Origin: an uncultured virus (IMG/VR IMGVR_UViG_3300035180_002914)
Taxonomy: Duplodnaviria > Heunggongvirae > Uroviricota > Caudoviricetes
Direction: 5' to 3' (one strand)
Virus record (IMG/VR): IMGVR_UViG_3300035180_002914
DNA length: 64,000 nucleotides
Under the pieces are notes generated by a model that was given only the letters and a program-made list of their open reading frames with translations, made no database searches and had not been told where the DNA came from. Positions 980 through 57,355 of this stretch are shown piece after piece (the first letter of the stretch is position 1; each line of letters opens with the position of its first letter). The translations under genes were made by a program, and so were the position numbers.

Positions 980-981
980 TC

Positions 982-1553: not shown

Positions 1554-1566
1554 GGAATTAAAATTA

Positions 1567-3379: not shown

Positions 3380-5142
3380 TTAAATTCAAAAAGATTAGAG
3401 TTAAGAACTTTTTAAGTTTCGGAAATTCTTTTACCGAATTCAAGTACAAAAACGGACTTGATTTGGTAGTTTCACATAACGGCTCAGGGAAGTCTTCGAT
3501 AGGTATAGAGGCTCTTTATTTCGCTGTTTTTGGCAAACCTTATAGAAAGATTAAGTTACAATCTTTGATAAACAATATCAACGAGAAGGAATTGCTTGTT
3601 GAGTTGTTTTTTGATTATAATGGGAAAGAGTATCAGATAAGAAGAGGTCTGAAACCTCAAGTTTTTGAGATTTACGAGAATGGCGAATTATTAGACCAAC
3701 TATCTCATAATAAAAATCAGCAAGAATTTCTTACTCAGACTCTTATGGGCGGAGTTTCTGAAAATATTTTTAGACAACTTATTGTTCTAGGTGCTAATAT
3801 TTCTTCTTCTAAAGCGTTTCTAGATCTTAATAAACAAGAAAAAGAAGATGTCTTTCAAATTATTGCTGACACCGAAATATTTAAAGACCTAAAAATAAGA
3901 TTAAAAGAAAAACTAGGTAATCAAAAAACTCTAATCAGAGAATATACCTATCAACAAGAAACTCTTGAGAAAACTCTAGAGTCAGAACAAATTATTCTTA
4001 ACCAACTTATAGAAGAAAACGAGCTTAAGAAAGAGGGCGAGAAAGCACTACTCAAAGAAGAGCTTGATAATAAAAACAAAATCATTGAAGAGATGAAGTT
4101 AGAGCTTTCAAAATTTAAACCATTGAAAGATGGTTACGAGAAAGCACTTAAAATAAAGGAAACTATCGAAAATAATTTAAGCGCTCTCTCTATAAAAAGA
4201 AAAGAAATAGAAAAAGAAATTCAAAAACTCGAAATAACAGAAAAAACATACTCACATTGTATAGGTTGTAAAAAGCTTGAGTTGTTAGGAGTAGCCTATT
4301 CTGAAGAGGAGTTAAATCATCATAGAGAAAATCTTCAAATTAATGACGAAGAAATAAAAATTCAAAAATCAAAGCTTGTTGAATTAAACAAGAAGCTTAA
4401 CTCTTTAAAAGAAAGATTAGACGATGCTAAAGCCTTGAAAGCGAAGCTTGACATCCATTTAAGTGAAAAAACGAAAATAGAAATTAAAATTAACACAATG
4501 CTTGATAGCTCTCCGAAGGTTTCAAAATCAGAAGAGTCTTTAAAGAATTCTATCTCTGAAAAGAAAGAGCAAATCAAAACCATCTTAACTAAATTATCTA
4601 AAGATAGAACTAAATTAGAAAAATATCAAAGACTTGAAAGCCTTCTTGATTCTGATAGGCTAAAAGGAGTTGTAATTTCTATGCAACTTCCACTTTTCAA
4701 CAAGTTGATTAATGAGTATCTTGAGAAATTTTCCGGAATTTCTTATAACATATTCATTGACAAGGACTTCACTGAAAGAATAATTCTTAGAGGCGAGGAA
4801 AAAGAATATAATTCAATGAGTAATGGCGAAAAAATGAGAATAAACTTTAGTATTCTTTTCGCATTCCACAAAATGATTGAGCTAAGAAATGGCTTTAAAA
4901 CCAATCTTCTAGTTCTAGATGAAGTTCTTGACTCTTCTGCTGATTATAATGGTAGAATGGAACTTCTTGAGATTTTGAAAAGAGAATACACTAACGAGAA
5001 AGATGTTATTATAATTTCTCACAATACAGATATTGTTAGTGATAACTCAGAATTTGATAGGATAATATCTATTGATAAAAGTAAACATTTCAGTAAAATC
5101 ATTATAAGTGAAAATGGAGACAACGGAAAAGATGAAAAATGA
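3376..5142 (+). CDS. gp46: gp46/Rad50/SbcC ATPase
   Basis: NFLSFGN, Walker A NGSGKSS, CIGC zinc hook within coiled coil, MSNGEK signature, LVLDE Walker B. Confidence 0.93.
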   Translation: MIKFKKIRVKNFLSFGNSFTEFKYKNGLDLVVSHNGSGKSSIGIEALYFAVFGKPYRKIKLQSLINNINEKELLVELFFDYNGKEYQIRRGLKPQVFEIYENGELLDQLSHNKNQQEFLTQTLMGGVSENIFRQLIVLGANISSSKAFLDLNKQEKEDVFQIIADTEIFKDLKIRLKEKLGNQKTLIREYTYQQETLEKTLESEQIILNQLIEENELKKEGEKALLKEELDNKNKIIEEMKLELSKFKPLKDGYEKALKIKETIENNLSALSIKRKEIEKEIQKLEITEKTYSHCIGCKKLELLGVAYSEEELNHHRENLQINDEEIKIQKSKLVELNKKLNSLKERLDDAKALKAKLDIHLSEKTKIEIKINTMLDSSPKVSKSEESLKNSISEKKEQIKTILTKLSKDRTKLEKYQRLESLLDSDRLKGVVISMQLPLFNKLINEYLEKFSGISYNIFIDKDFTERIILRGEEKEYNSMSNGEKMRINFSILFAFHKMIELRNGFKTNLLVLDEVLDSSADYNGRMELLEILKREYTNEKDVIIISHNTDIVSDNSEFDRIISIDKSKHFSKIIISENGDNGKDEK

Positions 5143-5392
5143 TACAAAAGAATTTATAGAAGAAGTAAAAAATTTCGCTAACACTAAAGGACTAAGTTTA
5201 AAAGATACAAAACTTTTAGAACTTATTCTTCTTTACTGTGACGAAAATGAACTTGACGAGGAAGAAATAGGTGTAATGCTTTCAAAAGATAGAGGTATTA
5301 CGGCTATTCTAGAAAAAGAAATGATTGAAGAAAAACTTCATAATGTGAAAAAGTATTCAATAAAAGAAGAAGAAAGTCTAGAGGACTTCTAA
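5108..5392 (+). CDS. gp33: gp33-like late transcription co-activator
   Basis: Small acidic protein with LYCDENELDEEEI..LEKE pattern, in T4-like context. Confidence 0.6.
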   Translation: MKMETTEKMKNDTKEFIEEVKNFANTKGLSLKDTKLLELILLYCDENELDEEEIGVMLSKDRGITAILEKEMIEEKLHNVKKYSIKEEESLEDF

Positions 5393-5393
5393 T

Positions 5394-5897
5394 ATGTTAC
5401 CTGAATCAAAACAGTATCAAATCTATTGGTCAGTAGAACTTACTAGAAAAGAAGGTAGACTTGTTAGATTTGTATCTGTATCTGATAAGAAGAAAATTCT
5501 TTTTAGAAATGTAGTAAATGTGAATTTTTATGAGAGCTGGACTGAAAAAAACTTTAAGCTAGCGGCGATTTGTTGCGCATTCTACAATAAGAAAAACTTG
5601 TTTAAAGAATTTGAAAAAGACCTAAGCAAATATAAAAGATTTAAAGATTACTTCTCAAAACCAAATTTTTACTTTTCAAAAGACCAAAACTATATGGAAG
5701 AGAAATATGGTAAGGAATTCGATGTTAAAGACATAATGAAAGAATATCTTTCTAATAAGATTTCATTATTAATGCCATTATTTTCCTTTGAAGAAATTGA
5801 TGACTCAAGTAGAATTTTGAAATTTGAAAAAGAAAGATTACGATTTTTGAGCCTCTATATTGATAGAGAGAAATTGTTAAACTTAATTCAGATATAA
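5394..5897 (+). CDS. hypothetical protein, possibly a gp59-like helicase loader
   Basis: Basic, aromatic 167-aa ORF after gp33; the functional guess is mostly positional. Confidence 0.3.
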   Translation: MLPESKQYQIYWSVELTRKEGRLVRFVSVSDKKKILFRNVVNVNFYESWTEKNFKLAAICCAFYNKKNLFKEFEKDLSKYKRFKDYFSKPNFYFSKDQNYMEEKYGKEFDVKDIMKEYLSNKISLLMPLFSFEEIDDSSRILKFEKERLRFLSLYIDREKLLNLIQI

Positions 5898-5923
5898 TAA
5901 TACTCTAAAGAAAAAGGATATCG

Positions 5924-6889
5924 ATGAAAAAAATTGACAACAGACATTTTATTTGGGCTGAAAAATATCGACCACAAAGTCTAGTTGATATGATACTCCC
6001 TTCTGATGTTATGGCTAAATTTCAAGAGTTTAAAGAACAAAGCCAAATTCCAAATCTTCTTCTTTGTTCGTCAACTCCAGGATTAGGAAAGTCTTCAATA
6101 GCTACAGCTATTCTTAAGGATCTTGAAGCTGATAGTCTTTGGATAAATTGTTCTAGAGACGGTAATATAGATACAGCAAGAAATAAAATAACAAATTTTG
6201 CTACTAATGCGTCTTTTACTGATGCTCCAAAAATTGTTATTATGGACGAATCTGATGGTCTTTCTTCTAGTGCTGGAGGAGCACAACAAGCTCTTAGAGG
6301 TATAATTGAAGAGTTCTCCAAAAACACAAGATTTATATTTACAGCAAACTATCCTGATAAGTTAATAGAGCCTTTAAGAAACAGACTTGTAACTTTCGAT
6401 TTTGATGAAATGTTCCATAAAAATAAGAAAGAACTAGGTGCTCAAATATTTAAAAGACTAACATTCATTCTTGAAAATGAAGGTATTGAATACGAAAAAG
6501 AACAACTTCAAAAAGTTATTCTAACCTATTATCCTTCAGTAAGAAAGATGATAATGATTTTACAACAAAATTCTACTAGCGGAAAACTAGAAATTTCCGA
6601 GAGAATTTTGAATGAAAATTTAGTTGTTGACGAGATTATTGTAGCATTAAAGAAAAAAGATTTTTCAAAAGCGAGACCTCTGTTAAATGAATTATCTGAT
6701 CCAGAGCATCTCTATACTATGGTTTATAGCAAAATAGACAAAATTGTTTCAGAGAAAAGTATTCCTGTTGTTATAATGACTACAGCGAAATATCTAGATA
6801 TGAGTCAAAGGTCAAGAGACAAGTATATTACTCTAGCTGCGTATTGCGCTGAACTATGTCTTTCACAACAAATTGAATATAAAGGTTAA
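5924..6889 (+). CDS. gp44: gp44/RFC clamp loader large subunit
   Basis: WAEKYRP, PGLGKS, IMDESD and FIFTAN motifs. Confidence 0.93.
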   Translation: MKKIDNRHFIWAEKYRPQSLVDMILPSDVMAKFQEFKEQSQIPNLLLCSSTPGLGKSSIATAILKDLEADSLWINCSRDGNIDTARNKITNFATNASFTDAPKIVIMDESDGLSSSAGGAQQALRGIIEEFSKNTRFIFTANYPDKLIEPLRNRLVTFDFDEMFHKNKKELGAQIFKRLTFILENEGIEYEKEQLQKVILTYYPSVRKMIMILQQNSTSGKLEISERILNENLVVDEIIVALKKKDFSKARPLLNELSDPEHLYTMVYSKIDKIVSEKSIPVVIMTTAKYLDMSQRSRDKYITLAAYCAELCLSQQIEYKG

Positions 6890-6891
6890 AA

Positions 6892-8121
6892 ATGGAACTT
6901 ACAAATAAACAAGTATTACATTCTACTACATCGGATCTTGCTTTTTCTCTTCCGGAATTTATTTCTAGAGAAAATTTACTTTCTCAGATTGATAGTTCTT
7001 TTACTGCTTTCACTTATATTCTTAGACAAAAAAATGCTTTTGAAGCGGTAGAAATTCTTAAAGAGAAAATGCGTATTGAAGTCATTGAAAGACCGATTAG
7101 TGTAAATTATACTTTGTTTCAATATAAAGGTTATAATGAAGATGGAGAACTTATATTATTCTTTCATCTACTTTACGACAGAAAAGAAACTGATGAAGAG
7201 TTTAACGAATATGATATTTATGTAAAAAACATTAAAGAAACAGAATTTGTAAATAAAGTATTTGCTGAGTTTGATGTTGAAGTATCACAAACAAAAATTC
7301 AGATAAGAAGATTCTATCAAAGATCTGATGGTCTTTTAGGAAGAAGTAGCAACATATACTATAGACTAGAAGAAATGAAAGAATTTAAAAAGGAATATTA
7401 TCCGTATATTGATGTAGATGAAATGTTTAAACAATTTCTTCTTTCAAACGAGAACATTTTGATAGTAATAGGCGATCCAGGGTTAGGAAAATCTAAAATG
7501 TTGAATGTTTACCAAAGGTTTCTTCTTGAAAATATAGATTTAGTAAAGAAAGATGATAATTCAGAAACTTCTGGAGAAATTTTAGCTTTCTATTTGAAAA
7601 ATGAAAATCTTCTTTCAAACGATGAGTTTTGGAATGAAATAAGTGAAGAAATTCCAGATCTTGTTATTTTAGATGATATAGATTATTACTTGACTCATAG
7701 AACAGCCGAAGTGAATTCAAATATAGACGATCAAAAAAATAAATTCATTTCTAATTTTCTTACCACTACTGATGGTCTATTTACAAAAACTAAAAAGACA
7801 AAGTTTTTGATAACATCAAATCTTTCTACGGAAGATCTAGATGTTGCTCTTCTAAGAAAAGGAAGAATGTTTGATATTATAAAATTGAGACCACTAACTA
7901 ATTCCGAAGCTAAGAATGTTTGGAATACCTACGATTTAGATGAAGATTTTGATAAGTATTTTAAGAGCGAGACAGTTTTACCTTCTGATCTTGGTTCTAT
8001 AATAAAACTTCTTCAAGAGAAAAAGGCTAAGAAGAAAGAAACAAAACATTCTTATTTAAAAGAAGAAGGTATTTCTATTTTAGAAAAAGTTAAGAAAAGA
8101 AAACATAAAGAAATGATTTGA
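6892..8121 (+). CDS. AAA+ ATPase
   Basis: GDPGLGKS, LVILDD, ITSN and LDVALLRKGR (second region of homology). Confidence 0.85.
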   Translation: MELTNKQVLHSTTSDLAFSLPEFISRENLLSQIDSSFTAFTYILRQKNAFEAVEILKEKMRIEVIERPISVNYTLFQYKGYNEDGELILFFHLLYDRKETDEEFNEYDIYVKNIKETEFVNKVFAEFDVEVSQTKIQIRRFYQRSDGLLGRSSNIYYRLEEMKEFKKEYYPYIDVDEMFKQFLLSNENILIVIGDPGLGKSKMLNVYQRFLLENIDLVKKDDNSETSGEILAFYLKNENLLSNDEFWNEISEEIPDLVILDDIDYYLTHRTAEVNSNIDDQKNKFISNFLTTTDGLFTKTKKTKFLITSNLSTEDLDVALLRKGRMFDIIKLRPLTNSEAKNVWNTYDLDEDFDKYFKSETVLPSDLGSIIKLLQEKKAKKKETKHSYLKEEGISILEKVKKRKHKEMI

Positions 8122-8130
8122 TAACTATTT

Positions 8131-8172
8131 AGAGAGATATACAACTTCAGTATATCTCTTCTTTCTTCTTTA
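8131..8172 (+). terminator. intrinsic terminator
   Basis: GAGATATAC/GTATATCTC stem followed by a pyrimidine-rich tail, after the AAA gene. Confidence 0.6.
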
Positions 8173-8552
8173 CTCCTACTATTCCTTTCAAGTATTATCT
8201 CTACTTTAATATAATTTATTAGTTTAAAAAGAGTTTGTGTTTCTATAGCCGTCCTTAGAATATAGCATATAGCATTTTCTTATCTAAAAAAATTTTATTT
8301 TTTACTTTTATATAATAATCGCTAAAAAATTTATTTTTCTACTTTAATATAATACTACACTAAAAAATATTTTTATTAAATGATGTTTTATATACAACTA
8401 AAAAGTTTGAATCATATAATGATGGTTTAGGAGAGGTTTACTAAGATATAGATAACATTTTATAGGTTTAAGTTTCTGTGGTATTAATCAAAGTTCAAAG
8501 CATTTTTAATAAAGATTATCATTATTAAATTTTTGATACTCTTTCATATCTG

Positions 8553-8576
8553 GAGTAGCAGAAGATCCTGCTACTC
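8553..8576 (-). terminator. hairpin after the fibre gene
   Basis: GAGTAGCAG/CTGCTACTC 9-bp stem. Confidence 0.5.
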
Positions 8577-8617
8577 TTATATTATTTTCAGTCTTTTTAG
8601 TAAAATAACTATCAGAC

Positions 8618-11600
8618 CTAATTAGAACTATCTATTATTATAGTGTCGCCTTTAGATAGTGAATCATTAAAGGTCAAAGTAGTTCCATCTACAGACCAAG
8701 CAGTAGAAGGAATTCTTACACCATTTTTAAATACTGCGAAACAAGAACCTTTAGGTCCATTCAATGTAATTTGTGTTTGTCCATCATCCGCAGTTAATTC
8801 TTGTGTGTAAGCAGGTAATTTAGTTCCTGAGGTTATTAGACCTTTACTATTGACTGTGATGTAATTATAAGATCCGGCTGTAACTACATCAGGAAGCGTA
8901 GCTGTAGCACTAATATCACTTGAACCATCAAATGTTGGAGTAGTAAATGATATATCTCCAGTAACTTTTAAAACTCTACCTGTAGCCAATTTAGACGGTA
9001 TATATGAATTAATAGCACCTGTTACAAACGCTGTAGTAGCTATTTGGGTTGTATTTGTTCCAGAATCAGCTGTTGGTGCTACTGGTGTACCTGTAAATGA
9101 AGGCGAATCAATAGGAGCTTTAGTACCTACTACATTAGTTAAAGCTGAAACAGTTGATTCGTCTTTTGATAGTTGGTCGGCTATTTCTTTTAGTGTATCT
9201 AGTGTAGAAGGAGCTGAATTAACTAGATTAGCTATAGCTGTGTCAGTATAAGATTTAGCTGAAGATAGTGTACTAGTGTCTTTATTATCAACATCCGTTT
9301 TAGTATAAGCATCTGTTATACCATAACCACTTACAGTAGTTGGTTTATTTAGTATTTGGGCTACACCACTAGTAGCAGACCAATCAGAGTTTACTTGCGG
9401 TTGATTATTGTAATTATCACTTACCCATTTCTTAGTATCAGATATAGCACCAGCTACAAATTTTGTAGTAGCTATTTGATCTGTATTAGTACTAGAGTCG
9501 GCTGTTGGTGCTATTGGTGTTCCTGTAAATGTAGGAGAGCTGATTGGAGCTTTAGCACTTAGAGCTGTATCTACATCAGTCTTTGAATAAACATCTGTAA
9601 TACCATATCCTGCTACTGTAGTAGGTTTATTTAGTATTTGAGCTACACCACTAGTAGCGCTCCAGTCGGCATTTACTTGAGATTTTCCATTACCATAATT
9701 ATCATTTACCCACTTTTTAGTATCAGATATTGCGCCAGAAACGAATTCTGTAGTAGCTATTTGAGTAGTATTATCTCCAGATGTTGGTGTAGGCGCTTTA
9801 GGTGTGCCTGTAAATGTAGGTGAGTCTAATGGTGCTTTAGTTCCTACCACATTTGTAAGAGCGGAAACTGCTGATTCATCATTTGTAAGTTGATCAGCTA
9901 TTTCTTTTAGTGTGTCTAACGTTGATGGAGCAGAATTTACTAGATTAGCTATAGCTGTATCTGTATAAGATTTAGCTGAAGATAAAGTACTAGAATCTTT
10001 ATTATCAACATCAGTTTTAGTGTAAGCATCAGTAATACCATATCCAGCAATAGTAGTAGGCTTGTTTAGTATTTGAGCAACACCACTAGTAGCACTCCAA
10101 TCTGAACTTACTTGAGGTAGAGCGCCAGCAAAAGGCTGTTTACTAATCCAAGTTTTTGTATCTGAAATAGCTCCAGAAACAAATTTTGTAGTAGCTACTT
10201 GGTCTGTATTAGTACTAGCGTCTGCTGTTGGTGCTATTGGTGTTCCTGTGAATGTAGGAGAGTCTATAGGTGCTTTAGCACTTAGAGCTGTATCTACATC
10301 AGATTTAGTATAAGCGTCTGTAATACCATAACCAGCAATAGTAGTTGGCTTATTAAGAATTTGAGCTACACCACTAGTAGCCGACCAGTCGGAATTTACT
10401 TGAGTTTTATCATCACCATAGTTATCATTTACCCATTTCTTAGTATCAGAAATAGCACCTGCGACAAATTTTGTAGTAGCTAATTGATCTGTATTTGTAC
10501 TAGCATCTGCTGTTGGAGCAGTTGGAGTTCCAGTGAACGCAGGAGAGTCTAATGGAGCTTTAGTACCTACTACATTAGTTAAAGCGGAAACACCAGACTC
10601 GTCTTTTGACATTTGATCAGCTATTTCTTTCAGAGTATCTAGTGTAGAAGGAGCTGAGTCAACTAGATTAGCTATTGCTGTATCTGTATAAGATTTAGCT
10701 GATGATAGTGTACTAGAGTCTTTATTATCTACATCTGTTTTTGTATAAGCATCAGTAATACCATATCCAGCAATAGTGGTAGGTTTATTCAAAATTTGGG
10801 CTACACCACTAGTAGCACTCCAATCCGAACTTACTTGCGGTAAAGCATTATAGAAAGGTTGTTTGCTAATCCAAGTTTTAGTATCTGATATAGCTCCAGA
10901 TACAAATTTTGTAGTAGCTAATTGATCTGTATTAGTACTAGCATCTGGAGTTGGTGCTATCGGTGTTCCTGTAAATGTAGGAGAGTCAATTGGAGCTTTA
11001 CTTTTTAGCGCAGTATCAACATCAGATTTTGTGTAAGAGTCTGTGATACCATAACCAGCTACTGTAGTAGGTTTATTGAGTATTTGGGCTACTCCGCTTG
11101 TTGCTGTCCAATCAGAACTTACTTGTGGTAAAGCGTTATAGAAAGGCTGTTTACTTATCCAAGTTTTTGTATCTGAAATAGCTCCTGTAACAAATTTTGT
11201 AGTAGCTATTTGGTCTGTATTAGTAGTAGCATCAGCTGTTGGAGCTACAGGAGTTCCTGTGAATGAAGGCGAATCAATAGGAGCTTTAGTACCTACCACA
11301 TTAGTTAAAGCTGAAACAGTTGATTCATCGTGTGATAGTTGATCAGCTATTTCTTTCAAAGTATCTAGTGTAGATGGAGCTGAATTAACTAGATTAGCTA
11401 TTGCTGTATCTGTATAAGATTTAGCTGATGAAAGAGTACTAGAGTCTTTATTATCAACATCAGTTTTAGTGTAAGCATCAGTAATACCATATCCAGCAAT
11501 AGTAGTAGGCTTGTTTAGTATTTGAGCAGCACCACTAGTAGCTGTCCAGTCAGGATTTACTTGGACGTGGTCATTACTATAATTATCACTTACCCATTTC

Positions 11601-20772: not shown

Positions 20773-21840
20773 ATGAACGAATTTGAAAGAATTATGCTTC
20801 AAGAGTCGTATGTGAATCCTGCAGCAGGAGAAAAACCCGAAGACGTTTACAAAAGAGTTTGTCGCGCTGGAGCCGACAATCCCGAACACGAAAAAAGACT
20901 TTATAGCTATTTTGAGCGAAATTGGTTTAGAACATCAACACCAATAACAGCGAATCTAGGAAATGAAAGAGGTTTACCTATTTCTTGTTTCGTACAGCAA
21001 ACTTCAGATTCTCTTAATGATATCTTTAACAAATATTATGAGGCTATGGTTCTTGGTGCTGCTGGAGGTGGTATAGGAAATGACTTCTCAGAAGTAAGAG
21101 AGGTAGGCGCTAAAACTAAGAACGGTAAAACATCAGGTATAATGCCTTTCCTAAAAATAAGCGAGTCTATTGCTCAAGGTATTTCTCAAGGAGGTTTGAG
21201 AAGAGCCTCTCAAGCAATTTATCTAGATGTACATCATCCTGAAATAGAAGAATTTATAGAAATGAGAACTACAAAAGGTGCTTCTATAGAAAGAAGGATG
21301 CCTAAACTACATCACGCAGTAAAACTTACTGATGAGTTTTTAAATGCTGTCATAAACGGCGAGTCATATAACCTATACTCTAGAAAAGACGGAAGTGTAG
21401 TAAAAACTCTAGATGCTTTTGACATATTTACAAAAATTCTTACTAAGAGACATCAACACGGCGAACCTTATCTATTCTTTTCGGAAAACGCTAATAAGAA
21501 TTTGAATGAATTGTATGTGAAAGCTGGATGGAAAATAACAACTTCACAGTTATGCTTATCTGGCGATTCTATATTAGAAACAGAAGAAGGCTATAAAAAA
21601 CTAAAAGATATAAAAATAGGCGATAAAGTAAAGTCTATGAATACTGAAACAAAAGAAATTTCATTCAAAGAAGTTACTGATTTTGCTATGACTTCGCCTA
21701 AAGCTAAAGTAATGAGAATAACAGATACTGAATCTGGCAAACAAATCGTTTGTACTCCTGACCATAAAATTTGGACAGAAAACAGAGGTTATGTTATGGC
21801 CAAAGATTTGAATGAAACTGATGTTCTTAAAATATCTTAA
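20773..21840 (+). CDS. nrdA: class I RNR large subunit N-half fused to split-intein N-fragment (IntN 21553-21837, 95 aa)
   Basis: STPITANLG, PISCF, GGGIG, QGG.RRA and HPEIEEF; then TTSQL|CLSGDS...CTPDHKIWT. No ATP cone. Confidence 0.93.
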   Translation: MNEFERIMLQESYVNPAAGEKPEDVYKRVCRAGADNPEHEKRLYSYFERNWFRTSTPITANLGNERGLPISCFVQQTSDSLNDIFNKYYEAMVLGAAGGGIGNDFSEVREVGAKTKNGKTSGIMPFLKISESIAQGISQGGLRRASQAIYLDVHHPEIEEFIEMRTTKGASIERRMPKLHHAVKLTDEFLNAVINGESYNLYSRKDGSVVKTLDAFDIFTKILTKRHQHGEPYLFFSENANKNLNELYVKAGWKITTSQLCLSGDSILETEEGYKKLKDIKIGDKVKSMNTETKEISFKEVTDFAMTSPKAKVMRITDTESGKQIVCTPDHKIWTENRGYVMAKDLNETDVLKIS

Positions 21841-21855
21841 TAAGGGAAGAAATAT

Positions 21856-22932
21856 ATGCTCAAAATAGAATTTTTAGAGGAAGAAATTCCTGTTTATGAT
21901 ATAACTGTGGAGGATAACCACAATTTTTTCGCTAATGAAATACTAGTTTCAAACTGCAATGAAATAATGTTGAGAGTAGCAGAAGATTACACTGCTGTAT
22001 GTTGTTTGGCTTCAGTCAACCTAGCAAAATACGATGAGTGGAAAGACAACTACCAATTTATAGAAGATATTATGAGACTTCTTGATAATGTAATTGACGA
22101 TTTTGAAAGAAAAGCTAAATCTGGAAAATTCGGTGAACCGAGAGGTTTCCAAAACTCTCTTAAATCCGCTCTATATGAAAGATCTGTTGGTCTAGGTCAA
22201 ATGGGTCTTCACACATATCTCCAATCTAAAATGATACCTTTCGAGTCAGCTCTTGCTGAAGGTTTCCAAAGAAAGGTTTGTACTTTCTTGAAAGATGCTA
22301 CTGATAGAGCGTCAAAAGAAATAGCTAAAGAAAAAGGCGCTTGTCCTATGTCTATCGAATATGGAGATGGAACTGATAGATTCGTCTGTAAGATGGCTAT
22401 TGCTCCTACTGGAAGTATTTCTATTCTTTGTGACAATGTGTCTCCTGGAATAGATCCTATTATAGCTAACGCTTATATTCACGAAAATAAAACAGGAAAA
22501 CACGAAATAAGAAATGTCAATCTTGAAAAGTATATCAAGAAATATGCTGAAGAGAATGGCGAAGATGATAAGTGGATTGAAAAACAGTGGAAAAGAATAA
22601 TCAAAGACAGAGGTTCTGTTCAAGGTCTTGAGTGGATGAGTGACGACGCTAAACTTGTATTCAAAACAGCTTACGAAATAGACCAAAGATGGATTATTTC
22701 TCACGCTAAAGTAAGACAAGAAAAAATTGACCAAGGTCAATCCGTAAATCTATTCTTTAATCACGATGTTGATAGAAGTTATCTTGCTTATGTACATTTA
22801 CAAGCTTGGAAAGCTGGATTAAAAGGTCTTTACTACTGTAGAAGTCAATCTGCTACTAAAGCTAGCTCAAATTACGAAAGAGAAATAATTCAAGAAATGG
22901 ACAAATATGAAACTTGTTTGTCTTGTCAATAA
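21856..22932 (+). CDS. nrdA: split-intein C-fragment (21856-21954, 33 aa) fused to RNR large subunit C-half
   Basis: PVYDITVEDNHNFFANEILVSN|CNEI; VCCLASVNL, IAPTGSIS, DQGQSVN, KGLYY and C-terminal CLSCQ. Confidence 0.93.
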   Translation: MLKIEFLEEEIPVYDITVEDNHNFFANEILVSNCNEIMLRVAEDYTAVCCLASVNLAKYDEWKDNYQFIEDIMRLLDNVIDDFERKAKSGKFGEPRGFQNSLKSALYERSVGLGQMGLHTYLQSKMIPFESALAEGFQRKVCTFLKDATDRASKEIAKEKGACPMSIEYGDGTDRFVCKMAIAPTGSISILCDNVSPGIDPIIANAYIHENKTGKHEIRNVNLEKYIKKYAEENGEDDKWIEKQWKRIIKDRGSVQGLEWMSDDAKLVFKTAYEIDQRWIISHAKVRQEKIDQGQSVNLFFNHDVDRSYLAYVHLQAWKAGLKGLYYCRSQSATKASSNYEREIIQEMDKYETCLSCQ

Positions 22933-28299: not shown

Positions 28300-28503
28300 A
28301 TGAAAAAAGTTCTTGTAAGCCTTCTTGTTATAGCTGGTCTTGCTTCTGTAGGTTTTGCAGCTGAAGCTAAAAAAGCTGATGAAAACAAAACTGAAAAAGT
28401 CGAATCAAAAAAAGCTAAAAAAGCTGAAGAAAGAAAAGCTAAAAAAGCTGAAGCAAAAAAAGCAGCTGAAGCTAAAAAAGCTGAAGCAAACGCTACAAAA
28501 TAA
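28300..28503 (+). CDS. small exported Lys/Ala/Glu-rich protein
   Basis: Signal peptide MKKVLVSLLVIAGLASVGFA followed by AEAKK repeats. Confidence 0.7.
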   Translation: MKKVLVSLLVIAGLASVGFAAEAKKADENKTEKVESKKAKKAEERKAKKAEAKKAAEAKKAEANATK

Positions 28504-28552
28504 AACGATCTAAAGCCGAATAATACACCTTTGTGCTAGGCTTTAGAAATAA

Positions 28553-28725
28553 GTCCATCTAGTTGCCAGTAACCTCTTTTGTCGAAAGAGGCTAGACGGA
28601 TATGCGGCGTCAAATAGCGCCGCTGACTGTGTGCTTAATAAAAAGTCCATTTAGTTATCAGTAACCTCTTTCAATGATAGGAAGAGGCTAGATGGATACA
28701 CGGGAGTAACTACCCGTTGATTGTT
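28553..28725 (+). ncRNA. tandem pair of a structured RNA motif (unassigned)
   Basis: Copies start at 28553 and 28645; stems are conserved, the P3 stem covaries, and a pseudoknot is likely. Confidence 0.6.
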
Positions 28726-28742
28726 TAATGAAGCACTTAATA

Positions 28743-28784
28743 ACTTTCTTCGATGGCTATTCGAGAATAGCCATCGAAGAAAGT
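28743..28784. repeat. perfect 20-bp inverted repeat
   Basis: ACTTTCTTCGATGGCTATTC-GA-GAATAGCCATCGAAGAAAGT. Confidence 0.85.
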
Positions 28785-28952
28785 CATTCGAATAATTTCT
28801 CATTGAGTATTCAGAAGTAAGTGCACCTCTACTTCAATGTCTCGAGAAATCCTTCGGCAGCAAAGGATCGCATAGTTTTAAGGGTGTGCGTATAGTTGTT
28901 GTCTCAGCTGGGAACATTGCTTAAACAATGAAACCAGCTTCCATTTAAACAC

Positions 28953-29240
28953 GGGCGGTTAAGGGTAAGATCCTGTTATTGTGTAGGTAAGAAATACACT
29001 TGAAAACAAATAAGTGCAAACAATACAAACTTTAAACCTGCAGCGGAGTTGGCAGCTTAACAAGAAACAACTCCTTTTGCTACGAAGTTGAATTTTTTCT
29101 TTTCCTTTCTTTTCACTTTTCTCTAAAAACATTGTAAAACTCCTATTTGAACTCAAAATCGTTTCAAGTGCGATTTTGTTTTAACTATTTCTTAACGAAG
29201 ATATCAGGATAACACGGCTTCGATGCCGTATCGTCCACCA
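28953..29240 (+). ncRNA. ssrA: tmRNA, tag ANNTNFKPAAELAA (29016-29060)
   Basis: Acceptor stem GGGCGGT/ATCGTCC with G3:U Ala determinant and ACCA end; T-arm ACGGC-TTCGAT-GCCGT; helix ATCCTG/CAGGAT; resume context ATAAGT-GCA; smpB 1 kb away. Confidence 0.92.
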
Positions 29241-29333
29241 TTTCTTAAATTAACCTTAATTTTTAATTTTGCTGAAATTTAAGATTAGTTTAAGAAATTT
29301 TTAGTTATAATTTCTCAAATTAAGTAAAAAGGC

Positions 29334-44051: not shown

Positions 44052-44632
44052 ATGCAGAATTGCATATTTAAGCTCTCGAATATAAATTTTGGTTGTCAAT
44101 CAAACCAGCAAAATTGTAATTTCGAGAGCATATATTAAGTCCTCTAAAATATAGTTTCTGATTCTATATTTTAGATGACTCTAAACTAAAACATAGAATC
44201 TGGAACTGAAAACTTCTTTCTCTTCCGTTTCTAAAATCAGAAAACAATAAATTCTAAAAATGTGATTTTAGAGGCGGATTTTCTCTAACAAAGCAAATCC
44301 CTTCAAATTATAACTACTGTTGTCAAATTGTCTCTAAATTTATGGTTGTAATTTCAATCATATTTTTAGGATTTATTTTTATAAGTTCTCGGTTACTTAT
44401 ATTTTTAAAAATTGTTGTATATGTTTCCTTTAGAGGGATTTTAAAAGACAGAAAGCAAAAATTTTAAATCTATCGAATTATTACTATATATTCTTTGTTA
44501 ATTGATAATCTATTATATCGATTAGTTAAGAATATACCAATTCTTACAGGAAGCTACTGTATAGCTTAATTTTTGATTGCTTTATTCATAAACAATCAGT
44601 TTCTTAGTCTTGTTCTTGCTTAATAGAACTTG

Positions 44633-46125
44633 GTGAACCGCTCCTTCATAAATGAAGGAGCTTCCTAACTAACAGCTTCCAGCGAAGCTGAAACACGAAA
44701 GGCTTTGCGTTTATATAAGTCCGCAAGGCTAGTTCCTAGCCCAAACGACTTCATACCTCTATATAGTATATGTACAGACGCCTGGAAATCTGGATTAGTC
44801 TGATGACCACAAGCCGTACATATAAATTTGTCTTGTTTAGGTCTGTTGTTCTTATCTATATTACCACAGTTTAAACAAGTAATAGAAGTATATAATGGAT
44901 CTACTTTTACAAACAATTTGTCATTAAGCGTTTGCTTATAAGAAAGCATTGTAGTAAATTGATAGAATGAAGCGCCTAAAATTGATTTATTTAAACCTGC
45001 TTTTTGTCTTACATTTTTTCCTTGTTTGACTTCATTTCCTTTAGCAGATTTAGTCATATTTTTCAATTTAAGGCCTTCAACTACTATCAAATCAAATTTG
45101 TTTGTTAATCTTGAAGAGATTTGGTGGTATAGATCCGTTCCTTTTATTAGTTATTTTCTTATGTAGTTTATTCAGTTTTTTCTGTGTCTTTTTATAATTA
45201 CTCCCTAATTTGGTTTTTGATTTTTTACTTACAAGAATTCTTCTAGATTGCTTTCGTATAAGACGTCTAATTATATCTTTTTCCGATAGTATCTTACGAT
45301 TAGAAGAACCATTGTTAATGAAATTTCCTGATTCAACCGATACTAAGTTTGATATCGGTTCAAAGAGAAAATCTACATTGTTAGAAACGGCAAAGTTATA
45401 CACATTCATATCTATACCTATACAATTGTCTTCATTCAAATTGTTAATAGATACAGGCTCTATTTCTTTTTCAAACGAAATTCCTATACTAGCGTAATAA
45501 CCGCTTGCATCTCTAGATATAACAACAGAAGTAAGCTTATAATCTTTAGGAAGTTCTCTATGATATCTTAGTTTGATATCTTGTTTCATAAGTCTTAGAG
45601 TAGTATTTCGTTTATCGGTTTCTTTAATAGATACTGCTTGATTATTCCAAACAAATGATTGTCTTACATCTTTACTTGATTTAAACTTTGGAAAACTGAT
45701 TGATAATGCTTTAGCTTTTTCTTTTGGAGTTATTGCTTTTTGAATGGCTTTATTTCTTTCGTCAATGACATATTTTGAAAATGCTCTTTTGACAGCTTTA
45801 AGGAAATTTATTCTAGCTTGTTGAATGACAACGGAAGAAAAAGGATTATTTCTAAGTTTTAAAGCTTTTTTTATAACTCTATCGTAAGAAACATTATCTC
45901 GATATTGTCTGTCTGACTTTTCGAGTTTTCTATTTCTTTCTTGTTCTTTTTGCCATAGATTTAAACAAATATTATAGGCTTGATTATAAACAAACATTTG
46001 ATGGTCAAGAACTTTCTTTTGTTCTTCTGTAGGATAGATCTGATATTTATAACCTAGATTTACAGTTTTGTTCATACGAAATTTAGTGTTGTTCCTTTTT
46101 ATAATTTGATTTATTTATTTGTTCA
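44633..46125 (-). mobile_element. tnpB: IS200/IS605-related tnpB-only element, copy 1 (ORFs 45092-46075 and 44665-45090)
   Basis: YKYQIYPTEEQ, FPKFK, GIDMN, IVVE, TSITC..CG and C..CG..NPD; right end GCGGTTCAC; no tnpA in window. Confidence 0.88.
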
Positions 46126-46520: not shown

Positions 46521-47123
46521 ATGAAAAAGACTATGAACCTTGTTTATAAGTACAAATTTTTTCCTACCTTAGATCAAAAAGCTCTTCTTGATTACAATAT
46601 TTTTATATATAACCAAGCATATAATATCTGTCTAAGACGTTGGAAAAAAGATAAAAAAGAAAACGAAAAGCTTGGAAAAAATAATAAACAACAAGAACAA
46701 AGCCCAGAGTATTATGATGAGGTTATAGAACAAACTTTGAATTCTAAAAAGTTACCTTTTTTACCTGTGGTTATAAAACAAGCCAGAGTAAATTTTCTAA
46801 AAGATTTAAAACTAGCTTATTCTAACAGTGTTTCTTCAAAAAGAAGAAAAGCTTCAAAAAATTCGAAAGAAAAGAAAAAAAACAGAAAAACAGGAATTTC
46901 ACAACGTCGAGTCAAAAACATCAGACAATCGTTTGAGTGGGATGAAAAAGAAATGAGTATCAAAGAAGGCTACGATTACGCTACTCTTAGTCTGATGGAG
47001 CTTGACCTACGAATGTTATATCTCCAAAAACTCCCAAATGGCTATAGAATAACCTCTGTTTTGATAATAAGAGATGAGACTGGTTATTATGTTAGTGTGA
47101 AATTCTCGTTTGATAGAATTTAG
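46521..47123 (+). CDS. RuvC-less TnpB derivative (N-terminal HTH/WED part only)
   Basis: Colinear with the N-terminal ~200 aa of the other copies; stops just before the GIDMN RuvC-I motif. Confidence 0.75.
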   Translation: MKKTMNLVYKYKFFPTLDQKALLDYNIFIYNQAYNICLRRWKKDKKENEKLGKNNKQQEQSPEYYDEVIEQTLNSKKLPFLPVVIKQARVNFLKDLKLAYSNSVSSKRRKASKNSKEKKKNRKTGISQRRVKNIRQSFEWDEKEMSIKEGYDYATLSLMELDLRMLYLQKLPNGYRITSVLIIRDETGYYVSVKFSFDRI

Positions 47124-47324
47124 TATACAAAATAAATCTAACTAACCAAAACATCAGTTGAGTAAAATACGTTTGTTATAAAAACTGACCTTTTAAAGGC
47201 TTATAAAAAATTAAGTCATTTTGCTCTTAACTTCTTCGGAAGACTATCAGTCATAAAAATTTCACCATTCTATTTTAGAGAGGTTAAATTTCAATTTTAA
47301 GCTAAATAAATATAGTAATAAAAA

Positions 47325-47915
47325 AGCCCGTTAAGAACGGGTTGAGATGAAAAGCTTTTTTTGTTGATTTTTACCAGAGGATGCCAAGAAGAGCTAGGGG
47401 GCGTCGGGAAAACTTTTCTCTCTAGCTAATTACGTGTCAAAAACACGTAAAACCGGTACTATTGTTAATCAGCCTTGGCCAAAAGAGTCCCAAAAAATTG
47501 ACCGTTTACATTAATGTGTAAGCGTGTCGCCCGATAACCTAAGGGTTTCTGAGAGTATCAAAACCTATGGTTATAATAATCCATACGGGCGAAAAGGGAG
47601 CGTAGAGATAGCTGAAAAGCTGCGTATCCCGCATTTTCTAGTAAAGTTAGACCCGACACTAGGAGCTTGTATATTGGCATAACCGAAAGGTGAGTTCTGG
47701 ATAAGGGATGCCGTCCAGATTAAGCCAATTTTGAAAAACAATCTCTATTTTTCAAACAGCATTTCGACGACTAAGCGAATATGTTTGATATGAGTCCCCT
47801 TAGTGAAAGGGTGAGGTATGTCTAAAAATCTTGGAAACAGGGTTTTTAGATCAAAACCTTCTTTTTCCAAGGGGCTTATATCTTTGAATTCTCTGACATA
47901 GCGAATATGTCATTT
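47325..47915 (+). ncRNA. about 600-nt highly structured ORF-free element, probably a large ncRNA
   Basis: GC-enriched, with about ten hairpins, GAAA tetraloops and loop-loop complementarity; AATAAATA upstream. Strand is inferred. Confidence 0.6.
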
Positions 47916-48428
47916 CTTAAATTTATTCTTATTAAATCCTTCTAAAAAATCTATCTAAACCTTCATCATAAAAAACTCACTTAAAAACTTCATTAATGAA
48001 AATATATCTTTAGTAAAAATTCTTTTAGTTAAATCTACTCTAGAAAAGTTATCTTAGAAGAATATAATCTAAAAAAATTTTCTTTTAGTATTTTCTTAAT
48101 AGGTCACTAAAAAATATTTTTTATTCAAACCATCCTATTATAAAAAATCAAATCATAAATCTTATAATTGAATTTTAATCGACTAAAGCGTTTAAACCAA
48201 ACGAAGCGCAAGCGAGTTTGGTTTAAACAGCTCAGCGAAGCCGTAAGGCGAAGCTGAATGGAAACTTCTTTTTATACTTTCTCCTCTAATAATCTTACTT
48301 CAATTAAATCTCCTTTATAAAAACTTCTTTGGATACAATTTTGTCTCCTATTAATATACTAATCTCTTAAATAAAAATTTAAGGAAACTTTAAGATAAAA
48401 TAGAATATAATTTCTATAAAGGATTTAA

Positions 48429-49410
48429 ATGTATAAAGAAGCGTTAGAAAAATTTCAAAAAGAATATCCAGATTACAAAGTAATCTTTCTACATAAATCA
48501 GGAAGCTATCTTTACGGAACACAAACACAAAACTCAGATATTGATTACAGAGGGATCTTCATTCCATCTAAAAGAGATGTTCTTCTAAAAAGAGATATAA
48601 CACAATGGAATTTCAGTACTACTAATGAAAGTGAAAAGAATAAAGCAGGAGATTTAGATTTAACTCTCTGGAGCGTTTATAAGTTTTTCGGAATGCTTCA
48701 AACAGGAGATACAAACTCTTTTGATACTTTGTTTTCTGTTAATTCTCCTTCAATAGAGTTTTGTTTACCTGAGATGAAACTAATATATGATAATAGATAT
48801 TATTTTCTACCGAATAGTTTAAAGTCCTTTTTTGGTTATGCTTATACACAAGTAAAGAAATACTCTGTAAAAGGTGACAGGCTGAAAGATGTTGAAAATG
48901 TCTTGAAATTTTTGAATAATACTTTTCCTCTTGATACTCTGACTCTTTCTATGGTACAACATAACCTTCCATATTCTGAAAAGCTAAAATGGGTGATTGA
49001 TCAAGATGGAATAGAGTACTATGAAATACTAGGCAAAAAATTTGTCAAGAATATGAAATTAGCAGAATTTAAAGAAAGAGTTCTTGAAATACAAAATTCT
49101 TTTGGAGCTAGAGCAAGAGCTGCAATGGATAGTGGATCTGTCGACTATAAAGTAATGTAATCACGCCTTTAGAGTACTAGATGAGTGTTTGGAATTGATG
49201 GAGACAAAAGAAATTAAGTTCCCTTTAGAAAGAAGAGACTTTTATCTACAGGTAAGAAATAGACAAATAACGTCCGAAGTGTTATTTCAAGCGCTTGAAG
49301 AAAGGTTTGATTTTGTTAGTGAATTTGAAAAATCTAATAAAAATCTTTTGAGGGATAGTAAGTTTGATGTTAAAAAATCTCAAGAAATTTTACTTAACTT
49401 TTTAAGCTAA
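48429..49410 (+). pseudogene. Pol-beta superfamily nucleotidyltransferase (NrdC.11/YcgL-like), split by a 1-nt insertion near 49159
   Basis: SGSYLYGT..NSDIDYRGIF; removing one A from ATGTAATCAC restores DYKVMYHAFRVLDECLELME into the 49189 ORF. Confidence 0.75.
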
Positions 49411-50475: not shown

Positions 50476-50483
50476 GTTTGGTT

Positions 50484-51974
50484 TTAAACTAAATAAATAA
50501 ATCAATTATAAAAAGGAATATTACTAAATTTCGAATGAACAAAACTGTAAATCTAGGTTATAAATATCGGTTGTATCCTACAGAAGAACAAAAGAAGCTT
50601 CTAGACCACCAAATGTTTGTATATAATCAAGCCTACAACATCTGTCTTAATCTATGGCAAAAAGAACAAGAAAGAAATAGAAAGCTAGAAAAGGCTGATA
50701 GAAAATACCGAAATGGTACATCTTACGATAGAGTTATAAAAAGAGCTTTAAAACTAAGAAAGATACCATTTTCTTCTGTTGTTATACAAAGAGCGGAAAT
50801 AAATTTTCTCGAAGCTGTTAAACGAGCTTTCTCGAAATATGTTGTTAATGAAAGAAATAAAGCTCTTTCTAAAGCAAAAACTCCTAAAGAAAAAGCAAAA
50901 GCGTTATCAATCGGTTTTCCAAAGTTTAAATCAAGTAAAGATGTAAGACAATCATTTGTATGGAGTAATCAAAATGTAAGTATTAAAGAAACAGATAAAA
51001 GAAATGCTATTTTAAGAATTATGAAGCAAAACATAAAACTTAGATACCACAGAAAACTTCCAAAAGATTATAAGCTTACTTCCGTTGTTATATCTAGAGA
51101 TGCAAGCGGTTATTACGCTAGCATAGGAATTTCGTTTGAAAAAGAAATGGAACAGGTATCTATCGACAATTTAAATGAAGAAAATTGTATAGGTATAGAT
51201 ATGAATGTTTATAACTTTGCTATATCAAGTGAAATAGATTTTCTCTTTGAACCGATATCAAACTTAGTATCGGTTGAATCAGGAAATTTCATTAACAATG
51301 GTTCTTCTAATCGTAAGATACTATCGGAAAAGGATGTAATAAGGCGTCTTAAACGAAAGCAATCAAGAAGAATTCTTGTAAGTAAAAAATCAAAAACCAA
51401 ATTAGGGAGTAATTATAAAAAGACACAGAAAAAACTGAATAAACTACATAAGAAAATAACTAATAAAAGGAACGGATCTATATCATCAAATCTCCTCCAG
51501 ATTAACAAACAAATTTGATTTGATAGTAGTTGAAGACTTAAAGCTGAAAAATATGACTAAATCTGCTAAAGGAAATGAAGTCAAACAAGGAAAAAATGTT
51601 AAACAAAAAGCAGGTTTAAATAAATCAATTTTAGGCGCTTCATTCTATCAGTTTACTTCTATACTTTCTTATAAGCAGTCGCTTAATGGCAAATTGTTTG
51701 TAAAAGTAGATCCATCATATACTTCTATTACTTGTTTAAACTGTGGTAATATAGACAAAGCTAACAGACCAAAACAAGATAAATTTGTATGTACAGCTTG
51801 TGGTCATCAAACAAATCCAGATTTCCAGGCATCTGTACATATACTGTATAGAGGTATGAAGTCGTTTGGGCTAGGAACTAGCCTTGTGGACTTATATAAA
51901 CACAAAGCCTTTCGCTCAGCTTCGCTGGAAGCTGCTAGTTAGGAAGCTTCGCCGTAAACGGCGAAGCGGTTCAC
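50484..51974 (+). mobile_element. tnpB: IS200/IS605-related tnpB-only element, copy 2 (ORFs 50535-51518 and 51520-51942)
   Basis: Same motifs as copy 1 (IVVEDL here); right end GCGGTTCAC at 51974. Confidence 0.88.
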
Positions 51975-55861: not shown

Positions 55862-57355
55862 ATGAGCAAATTTAACACAACAGCTAAAGGCAAAAACTCT
55901 ACTCCGACAGGAGAAAACCTAGCAGGCGGCGTTTCTTTTGATAGAGATCTTAAATCTGAAGTCGCTTCTGTAGTGCTCAGCTCTATGCTAAACGGTGATC
56001 AATACTATATGACAGCAGAAGAAAAAATGTCGTATATCGATCAACTTGCATCAGAGTGTGCTAAAAACGAAGACACAGCAGTATTCTTCGCTAAAGCTAT
56101 GGTTTACGCTAGAAATGAAGGTTTCTTGAGATCAGTTTCACACCTTATGGCGGTTAATTTAGTAGAAAATGTTAAAGGAAAAGAGTTTGTAAAACCTGCT
56201 CTTATTAAAACTTTTATCAGACCAGACGATATGACAGAAACTGTTGCTCTGTGGAACTCTAGACATCCTGATGTAATGGTTCCAAACTCTATACAAAGAG
56301 CTTGTAAAACTTGCCTTGAAACTAAGTGGGACAGGTTTCAATTGAAGAAGTATGAGGGCAAATCGAAAAAAGTAAAACTAAGAGATATTGTTAAGCTTTC
56401 TCACCCAAAAGACCCAAACGGTGCGTTTAAACAACTAATAGAAGGAACTCTACCAAAAATAGACACCATAGAAAGAAATGTTGCCGCTGGCGAGTCAGCT
56501 TCTGAATCAATGAGCAAACTATTGAGAGAAAACAGACTACCGTATATGGCAGCTGTAAAAAACATAAGGAACGCTCTCGAATCTGGTTTGTCAAAAGATG
56601 ATGTTCTTAAATTCTGTGAATTGATAGTGAATGATAAATTGAGAGCTAAGTCTAAAATAATGCCATTTAGATTTTGGGATGCATATAGACAAGTTGAAAT
56701 TTCTAGTGGTATCGATAGATTTACAAAAGAACACGTAAAAGAAGCTCTTGAAATAGCTTTTATAGCTGCTACAAAAGACCTTAATATTCTGAAAGAAGGT
56801 GAAAGAATAGCTCTTTGTCTGGATGAATCTGGATCTATGGGTCGTATGTATGACAATAAATCACCGTTTTATCACGGAGCTATTTTGACTTGCGCAATTC
56901 ACGCTAGCGTAGGAGCTAAAAACTCTATTGTATACGGCTGGGACACTGGTTGTAGAGAAATATCTATGATAGCGAATTCTCCGTTCGCAACACTGTCTGG
57001 AATGGAAGCTAACAGTGGTGGTACATCAGTAGAAGCTCCTCTTCAAAAAATGATTCAAGATAAAGTATATGTTGATAAAATTTTGATTTTTACAGACGAA
57101 CAGTTTTTGTCAGCAAGAGGTTGTAAGAATAAAAAATTTGATTCAGTTCTAAATGAGTACAAATCTAAAATTAACAAGGATGTACAAGTTATATTTTGGA
57201 ATTTAGCTGGATATTCTGGAGGAGCACCATATAATACCTTTAATGGTAATATATCAGAAATCTCAGGTTATTCTGATAGAATTCTATCTGTTCTTGGAAA
57301 CCTTTGGGGAGACAAAAGTGCTCTTGTAAGAGAAATTGAAAAAGTTGAGCTTTGA
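55862..57355 (+). CDS. rsr: Ro60/TROVE-domain RNA-binding protein with vWA domain
   Basis: MSKFN..NLAGG.SF, ARNEG.LRS, FQLKKY, LRDIVKLSHPK, PFRF, DESGSM, GGT, IFTD and WNLAGY. Confidence 0.88.
   Translation: MSKFNTTAKGKNSTPTGENLAGGVSFDRDLKSEVASVVLSSMLNGDQYYMTAEEKMSYIDQLASECAKNEDTAVFFAKAMVYARNEGFLRSVSHLMAVNLVENVKGKEFVKPALIKTFIRPDDMTETVALWNSRHPDVMVPNSIQRACKTCLETKWDRFQLKKYEGKSKKVKLRDIVKLSHPKDPNGAFKQLIEGTLPKIDTIERNVAAGESASESMSKLLRENRLPYMAAVKNIRNALESGLSKDDVLKFCELIVNDKLRAKSKIMPFRFWDAYRQVEISSGIDRFTKEHVKEALEIAFIAATKDLNILKEGERIALCLDESGSMGRMYDNKSPFYHGAILTCAIHASVGAKNSIVYGWDTGCREISMIANSPFATLSGMEANSGGTSVEAPLQKMIQDKVYVDKILIFTDEQFLSARGCKNKKFDSVLNEYKSKINKDVQVIFWNLAGYSGGAPYNTFNGNISEISGYSDRILSVLGNLWGDKSALVREIEKVEL

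Follow-up and report, generated by a model that had tools for sequence, protein, structure and literature searches.

The 64,000-nucleotide (nt) stretch of DNA analysed here, referred to throughout as the window, is IMG/VR virus record IMGVR_UViG_3300035180_002914 from an uncultured member of the Caudoviricetes, and its positions 47325-47915 hold a GC-enriched island of about 590 nt that may encode a large structured RNA with no family of its own, a candidate that, judged on its single sequence, is credible but unproven. Large non-coding RNAs with an intricate fold are a rarity. The best explanation of the island, and a probable one, is that an RNA fold evolved on its + strand, and a working, stand-alone phage RNA of about 590 nt belonging to no known family is a serious possibility, somewhat short of probable. 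An earlier note on this DNA had proposed a large non-coding RNA here and had offered an origin-associated primer RNA as an alternative; the lack of open reading frames (ORFs) and the dense structure stood, with a preference for the + strand in addition, and the origin and primer alternative found no support.

Folding energy and predicted architecture of the island

Folding of the 591-nt + strand gave a minimum free energy (MFE) of -197.5 kcal/mol, compared with -144.8 +/- 6.4 kcal/mol for dinucleotide shuffles (z -8.26), and the native value was matched by none of 100 shuffles. The - strand reached -159.6 kcal/mol (z -4.97). Windows of 300 nt along the + strand of the island gave z values of -3.85, -4.80 and -7.72, against a background of 62 window-strands from positions 1-9300 with a mean of -0.62, a standard deviation of 1.2 and a minimum of -3.58. 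The fold was identical in contexts of 591, 661 and 1,177 nt, with helix pair probabilities mostly at 0.9-1.0. G-U pairs made up 25 of the 200 pairs on the + strand as opposed to 11 of 182 on the - strand, and the 25 G-U pairs of the + fold are mismatches on the opposite strand. In the + strand fold, A occupies 47% of the unpaired positions.

The predicted RNA is divided into two domains (Table 1). In domain 1 (47352-47668), the long-range helix H1 encloses H2, H3, a weak H4, H5, the receptor arm H6 and the GAAA hairpin H7, while domain 2 (47673-47912) combines the three-way junction with H9, H10, H11 and H12. The six stems that had been named earlier from the letters were all recovered (6/6) in the MFE fold, with mean pair probabilities of 0.94-1.0, and the motif AATAAATA, placed near 47305, is present at 47305-47312. 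H12 went uncalled by the terminator scan because its stem has too few G-C pairs. The two ends of the RNA are positions that we infer.

Base composition and coding capacity agree with the description of an ORF-free GC island. In 200-nt windows, GC is 0.375-0.435 across 47300-47899, with 0.25 at 47100-47299 and 0.19 at 47900-48099 on the two flanks, and the island sits inside a 1,305-nt gap (47124-48428) in which no ORF exceeds 56 amino acids (aa). No frame opens on read-through of any single stop codon, the longest stretch being 131 codons, and the five small ORFs of the island had no match in the protein collection. A 16-nt direct repeat (47769-47784 and 47895-47910, 88% alike) brackets H11. 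Neither a GC-skew switch in the window nor iterons or tandem arrays were found, which leaves the origin reading, and with it the primer RNA, without support. The T4-type late promoter TATAAATA occurs 11 times in the window with 9.95 occurrences expected, a count that is uninformative.

Table 1. Predicted elements of the candidate RNA and features of its immediate surroundings (p, pair probability; positions are those of the window)
Feature	Position	Strand	Basis
Candidate structured RNA, ~590 nt, two domains	47325..47915	+	GC island, fold z
5' hairpin H0, 8 bp, AAG loop	47325..47343	+	p 0.92
Long-range helix H1, four segments, 28 bp, closes domain 1; 5' strands	47352..47384	+	p 0.81-0.92
H1, 3' strands	47631..47668	+	pair probabilities, kept in 1,177-nt fold
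Hairpins H2 (47392-47427) and H3 (47430-47450)	47392..47450	+	p 0.94, 0.95
Stem AGCUAGGGGG/CUCUCUAGCU	47392-47401/47418-47427	+	p 0.94
Stem UUACGUGU/ACACGUAA	47430-47437/47443-47450	+	p 0.95
Hairpin H5	47500..47528	+	main stem p 0.99
Hairpin H6, receptor arm	47529..47590	+	p 0.94-1.0
Stem GCCCG/CGGGC	47529-47533/47586-47590	+	p 1.0
Hairpin H7, 6-nt bulge AGAGAU, GAAA tetraloop 47614-47617	47596..47630	+	predicted fold
Three-way junction H8, GAAA tetraloop 47685-47688, second arm 47696-47719	47673..47729	+	p 0.76-0.96
Stem UCUGGAU/GUCCAGA	47696-47702/47713-47719	+	p 0.96
Hairpins H9 (47730-47756) and H10 (47758-47785)	47730..47785	+	p 0.87-0.95
Long imperfect hairpin H11, 96 nt, GAAA tetraloop 47834-47837	47787..47882	+	p 0.96-1.0
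Stem GAUAUGAG..CCCCUU/AAGGGG..CUUAUAUC	47787-47801/47869-47882	+	p 0.97-1.0
Stem UCUAAAAAUCUUG/CAGGGUUUUUAGA	47821-47833/47838-47850	+	p 1.0
Hairpin H12, 7 bp, GCGAA loop, then U-rich tract; possible weak 3' terminator	47894..47935	+	p 0.95
cUUCGg tetraloop hairpin upstream of the island	47231..47242	+	sequence inspection
200-aa ORF, TnpB WED-REC part without RuvC nuclease	46521..47123	+	homology, Pfam, model
34-nt look-alike of insertion-sequence left end and upstream motif; possible promoter source	47295..47327	+	local alignment
Two hairpins like insertion-sequence right-end hairpins	48190..48256	.	perfect 13-bp inverted repeat 48190-48228, then 48228-48256

Putative tertiary-contact motifs and search for relatives

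GAAA tetraloops, which the earlier note had mentioned, cap three of the 13 hairpin loops of the fold, those of H7, H8 and H11, whereas 120 shuffled sequences averaged 0.10 such loops and never had more than one. H6 carries an 11-nt GAAA-tetraloop receptor that had been overlooked, formed by CCUAAG at 47538-47543 and UAUGG at 47566-47570, the consensus for which is reportedly that of Costa and Michel in 1995. This motif has a single match in the whole window, and in the predicted fold it adopts the canonical frame, with CC-GG pairs, a G47543-U47566 pair and an intervening 3x2 internal loop. The 11-nt receptor, with its flanking C-G and G-U pairs, and GAAA hairpin loops are predicted to co-occur in the same RNA, which is what defines the tetraloop/receptor module. 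Additional complementarities lie between GUCGGG (47403-47408, in the H2 loop) and CCCGAC (47652-47657) and between AUGCCAA (47381-47387) and UUGGCAU (47674-47680), both pairings falling outside the MFE fold, and between GGCGUC of the H2 loop (47400-47405) and the loop GAUGCC (47707-47712).

The sequence was compared with Rfam 15 by cmscan, at the gathering score on the 64 kb and at E<=10 on 1,601 nt and 601 nt (lax filters). No family matched the island, even at E<=10, the silent models including those of ROOL, GOLLD, OLE, HEARO, RNase P, group I and group II introns and the small ribozymes, in agreement with the earlier failure to recognise ROOL, GOLLD, RNase P or a group I/II intron by eye. 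Five matches at E<=10 on 1,601 nt lay outside the island or at its edge, with E values of 0.9-4.5. The RNase P models rest on conserved regions CR-I to CR-V, the group I model on a conserved P3-P9 core and the group II models on domain V and a D1-D4 architecture.

Searches for homologs of the island were likewise negative. A 'distant' blastn search of 50,697 phage records gave no true match, and none was found in the nearest IMG/VR record (G001) or in two further records, G002 and G003. Five DNA patterns run on viral contigs, the last of which returned 22 loci that all (22/22) matched only the 16-19-nt seed, and one pattern run on metagenome contigs gave no true match. Anchored searches used the genes on either side, namely a TnpB fragment upstream and the RlaP nucleotidyltransferase downstream, as well as the major capsid protein: scans of viral contigs with RlaP and the capsid protein gave no island match, the capsid scan yielding only G001-G003, and no island homolog came from the TnpB-fragment alignment on metagenome and genome contigs or from a 327-aa TnpB part on genome contigs. 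Within the window, a covariance model built from the single sequence 47500-47630 recovered nothing but its own source, and it had no match in G001-G003 or in the Campylobacter phages CP21 and CP220. The window, G001 and G002 contain no second copy of the island, and there is therefore no sign of mobility. In a Klebsiella T4-like phage with an RlaP homolog, no intergenic gap lies upstream of that homolog.

Two shallow contigs offer a glimpse of variation. A related 151-nt contig (depth 2.3) covers 47300-47395 with 12 differences, seven of them listed, among which 47330 G>A and 47338 C>T are compensatory and preserve a single pair in the 5' hairpin, the change 47365 T>C would make a U-G pair of H1 a C-G pair, and 47346 and 47348 fall outside the confident helices. 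A 239-nt contig (depth 2.1), with 27 nt on its shorter side, joins 47786 to 47890 and skips H11; this joint would remove exactly H11, as expected of a variable arm, which is a weak pointer. The differences in these contigs are hints, too thin to count as covariation.

Genomic neighbourhood of the island

The island starts 200 nt past the stop codon of a 200-aa ORF on the same strand, a TnpB gene without its nuclease half, and this IS605/TnpB setting was overlooked in the earlier note. The ORF aligns at 43% identity with residues 1-203 of the TnpB copies in the window and has a Pfam HTH_OrfB_IS605 match, and the family profile matches ISDra2 TnpB along its full length. Its structural model (predicted local distance difference test, pLDDT, 85.5; predicted template-modelling score, pTM, 0.80) finds its best fold matches in ISDra2 TnpB (8h1j, 8exa and 8ex9), of which 8ex9 is a conformer with only the non-RuvC part ordered, matched at a template-modelling (TM) score of 0.72 by target length. 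On the strength of this confident model and its fold matches, the ORF encodes a recognition module that is complete but has no nuclease. A 203-aa metagenomic protein (P0013, on a 1,814-nt contig) is 77% identical to the ORF, differs by one in-frame 3-residue indel and shares the C-terminal ...RI stop, and a 202-aa protein (P0016, 36% identity) ends at about the same boundary. Among 1.84 billion representatives, 37 proteins matched at E<=0.001, none except the ORF itself exceeding 45% identity. The shared end in P0013 and the absence of any full-length protein above 45% identity argue that the short TnpB form may be kept by selection. The possibility that the island is the decayed C-terminus of this TnpB was rejected, since tblastn queries with 13 members of the family, one of them the TnpB of the window itself, gave nothing at E<0.1 beyond residue ~203.

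The sequences bordering the island also resemble parts of the IS605-type insertion sequence (IS). The segment 47295-47327 resembles 50482-50516 of the intact TnpB IS copy with an alignment score of 34, compared with a null maximum of 32 in 100 shuffles, and 47295 and 50482 are the only two sites that TTTTAARCTAAATAAATA, an 18-mer degenerate at one position, matches without mismatch. The hairpins at 48190-48256, 280 nt beyond the island, resemble the right ends of the TnpB copies at a borderline level (score 27 versus a null maximum of 26). With left-end-like and right-end-like sequences on its flanks, the island thus sits in IS605/TnpB debris. Each of the two TnpB copies of the window, at 44665-46075 (-) and 50535-51942 (+), is broken at one common point into pieces of 327 and 140/141 aa that lie in different frames, which reflects either a defect that the copies share or a frameshift that translation passes through; the TnpB copies in G001 are open for 471 and 476 aa, and a relative of 469 aa (P0015) is continuous. 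The next gene downstream of the island, 500 nt further on, is RlaP, behind a promoter and ribosome-binding-site block that recurs at 57623. The RlaP gene (48429-49410) is itself in two parts, of 243 and 73 aa, separated by 28 nt and read in different frames, and its relative P0002 (6,131-nt contig, 88% identity) is one 329-aa protein. Between the island and RlaP, an AT-rich imperfect palindrome (48047-48108) has further copies in G002 and at window positions 8282-8374; the first 37 nt of the palindrome are present on much deeper contigs in all four of the DNA runs described next, and are therefore common to another, more abundant genome.

The window as a whole is part of an AT-rich, T4-like phage genome of about 29-36% GC. 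Its annotated phage genes include those for the portal, a gp23-type major head protein, the clamp loader, SbcCD, ribonucleotide reductase, a DnaB-type helicase, DNA ligase, PhoH, NAMPT, a TROVE/Ro60-like protein and the RlaP nucleotidyltransferase, and by major capsid protein the closest cultured relatives are Campylobacter phages of the Eucampyvirinae, at ~50% identity. Near-identical DNA is present in four runs labelled as sediment or microbial-mat metagenomes, all of DNA and none of RNA; contigs with 0 differences span the whole stretch in three of the four, and the fourth run covers 47136-48450. The DNA of the island is therefore real, on runs that are possibly the window's own source. G001 matches the window only to ~44850, where it ends inside an IS copy, and is therefore uninformative on the RNA region.

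Several other loci of the window are recorded here in their own right. A second ORF-free, strongly folding region (28504-29333) lies behind a 67-aa lipoprotein-like ORF; 617 nt of it fold at -189.6 kcal/mol (z -5.67), and regression of MFE on base composition singles the region out, on both strands, as the window's strongest outlier. Within it, two units of ~100 nt stand in tandem (about 28549-28625 and 28647-28725), their stems distinguished by changes that compensate each other (for example GUCCAUCUAG..CUAGACGGAU versus GUCCAUUUAG..CUAGAUGGAU, and GCGGCG..CGCCGC versus ACGGG..CCCGU), and a perfect 19-bp hairpin lies near 28744-28785; the region has no Rfam match. The TROVE/Ro60-like protein, with a vWA domain, is encoded at 55862-57355, and Rfam detected no Y RNA in the entire window. 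The large subunit of ribonucleotide reductase (20773-22932) consists of two adjacent ORFs of 355 and 358 aa; at its end the first also has matches to helicase families, a possible sign of an intein or inserted element.

Competing explanations and comparison with known RNAs

Several observations weigh against a working RNA. No homolog was found in viral, metagenome or genome contigs, and the changes at 47332 and 47339, two of the seven listed in the related contig, break pairs of the 5' hairpin. The + strand ends have no sigma-70-like promoter and no standard terminator call, with nothing convincing at 47300, and the sole terminator-like call is on the - strand (47341-47327, the 5' hairpin and a T run). 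In a weaker control, in which MFE was regressed on base composition over 850 window-strands of the window, the residual z was moderate (-1.5 to -3.1 on the + strand and -0.6 to -1.5 on the - strand) and stronger outliers were found elsewhere, at 28501-28950 (both strands) and 44101-44400, and the island is therefore clearly structured but not unique in the genome. The locus is, moreover, a patch of broken mobile-element DNA, where relics are expected. It is conceivable, if doubtful, that no working RNA is made, and that the island is foreign or decayed GC-richer DNA with a fortuitous fold, or a DNA-level element such as an origin with its primer transcript. Its orphan status in every collection searched, its position amid IS fragments, the moderate regression signal, the AT-rich tract of 19% GC that follows it and the lack of promoter and terminator calls fitting the + strand would all suit such an account. 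The strand asymmetry, the G-U pairs, the three GAAA loops and the perfect receptor, however, would be unexpected from decayed coding DNA or DNA hairpins, no protein remnants were found, and the absence of a skew switch, iterons and tandem arrays speaks against an origin.

A rather unlikely alternative, given the surroundings, is that the RNA belongs to the IS605/TnpB remains, either as an oversized omega-RNA-like partner of the 200-aa fragment, made from the same + strand transcript, or as the cargo of a TnpB-less IS derivative bounded by the left-end-like 47295-47327 and the right-end-like hairpins at 48190-48256. Omega RNAs lie at or just past the 3' end of the tnpB gene, on the same strand, and end at the transposon right end, with scaffolds that are related between related TnpB elements. 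The island follows a TnpB-family ORF by 200 nt on its strand, between end-like flanks, although that ORF has no nuclease half. The fragment upstream, modelled as a complete and confidently folded WED-REC module, is open with the same end in its 77%-identical relative and has no full-length counterpart above 45% identity, which argues for a maintained short form. Against this stand the lack of similarity between the island and the omega-RNA (3') regions of the window's two TnpB copies, a length of 590 nt that is several times that of known TnpB guide scaffolds, the absence of any TnpB C-terminal remnant in 47124-48500 and of a second copy of the island in the window, G001 or G002, the short, AT-rich and borderline nature of the flank similarities, and the fact that a protein without RuvC cannot cut. 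The same observations on the fragment (complete-module fold, shared stop in the 77%-identical relative and no full-length relative above 45% identity) are compatible with a bolder idea, which we rate as very improbable, in which the 200-aa protein would be a maintained 'mini-TnpB' of WED-REC lobes and the 590-nt RNA its partner in guided nucleic-acid binding without cutting. Such a ribonucleoprotein, with a very large RNA replacing most of the protein, might for example silence a host or rival-phage target.

A GAAA tetraloop with an 11-nt receptor is a hallmark module of group I and group II introns and RNase P, and the island could be what remains of a self-splicing intron, either of group I, the type found in IStrons, or of group II, or of another large ribozyme, one that has lost its exon context and diverged past the covariance models, an origin we consider quite unlikely. 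According to PMC4227781, IStrons are a group I intron joined to an IS605-type element at the IS left end, have lengths of 482 to 2,582 nt and are also known from phages, and the island does abut a left-end-like motif. The same paper reports, however, that the published IStron introns were detected with the Rfam group I model itself at at least 20 bits, whereas no intron or ribozyme model of Rfam matched the island. No interrupted gene and no exon-like ORF pieces were found on either side, and no P3-P7 pseudoknot with a guanosine-binding site was recognised in a look by eye only, MFE folding being blind to pseudoknots. As for group II introns, which often carry a reverse-transcriptase ORF, there was no cmscan match and no ORF in the island beyond the small ones already mentioned, and H7, compared by eye, is unlike domain V, having a 6-nt bulge on its 5' strand where the domain V consensus has a 2-nt bulge on the 3' strand.

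According to the explanation that we prefer, the + strand of the island would encode a self-folding RNA of ~590 nt that acts in trans, from a gene that is single-copy or has very recently become a relic. Transcription would begin immediately ahead of H0 at 47325, with the 34-nt look-alike of the IS left end as a possible promoter source, and would stop at the AU-rich hairpin and U tract at 47894-47935. One GAAA loop would dock into the receptor at 47538-47570 and lock a compact tertiary fold, and the other GAAA loops and the complementary loops would be free for contacts within or between molecules. Folded in this way, the RNA would work as a particle, whether scaffold, assembly or ribozyme-like, along the lines of ROOL and GOLLD, and would be neither an mRNA nor the leader of the next gene, RlaP, which starts 500 nt away behind its own promoter-like block. 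ROOL, GOLLD and OLE have recently been found to build RNA-only cages or dimers. If the explanation is true, a further large-RNA class, from a Campylobacter-phage-related lineage of sediments and mats, widens this small set, and its textbook tetraloop-receptor pair would make the RNA an easy object for structure work. The position behind a nuclease-less TnpB fragment also raises the question of whether relatives of TnpB could be pared down to an RNA-binding core paired with an enlarged RNA. Known as one sequence, the island has for now the value of a well-founded candidate.

The titles and abstracts found in searches on IStrons, TnpB and group I introns, on GOLLD and ROOL phage RNAs and, from 2023 on, on RuvC-lacking TnpB contained no description of the island RNA or of a WED-REC-only TnpB, a result limited to those searches. 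As in group I and group II introns and RNase P, the predicted RNA has an exact 11-nt receptor in its canonical helical frame together with three GAAA loops, but the rest of it fits no model of these families. Like TnpB omega RNAs and IStrons, it lies on the same strand as, and just downstream of, a TnpB-family ORF, beside IS-end-like sequence; here, however, the upstream ORF is without its nuclease half, and the island is single copy and without a group I signature. GOLLD is often found beside tRNA genes, whereas ARAGORN found no tRNA gene in the 64 kb of the window. In bioRxiv 10.1101/2024.12.08.627333, ROOL and GOLLD are phage-borne, non-coding RNAs of the ~600-800 nt size class whose function is unknown, built of many stems with loop-loop and A-minor type contacts, and form RNA-only cages via kissing loops and A-minor contacts. 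The island shares the size class, the phage setting and the non-coding character, and is predicted to be built alike; it differs in having no Rfam model match and no known family members. By way of working, the closest known things would probably be ROOL and GOLLD, with the island standing outside both families.

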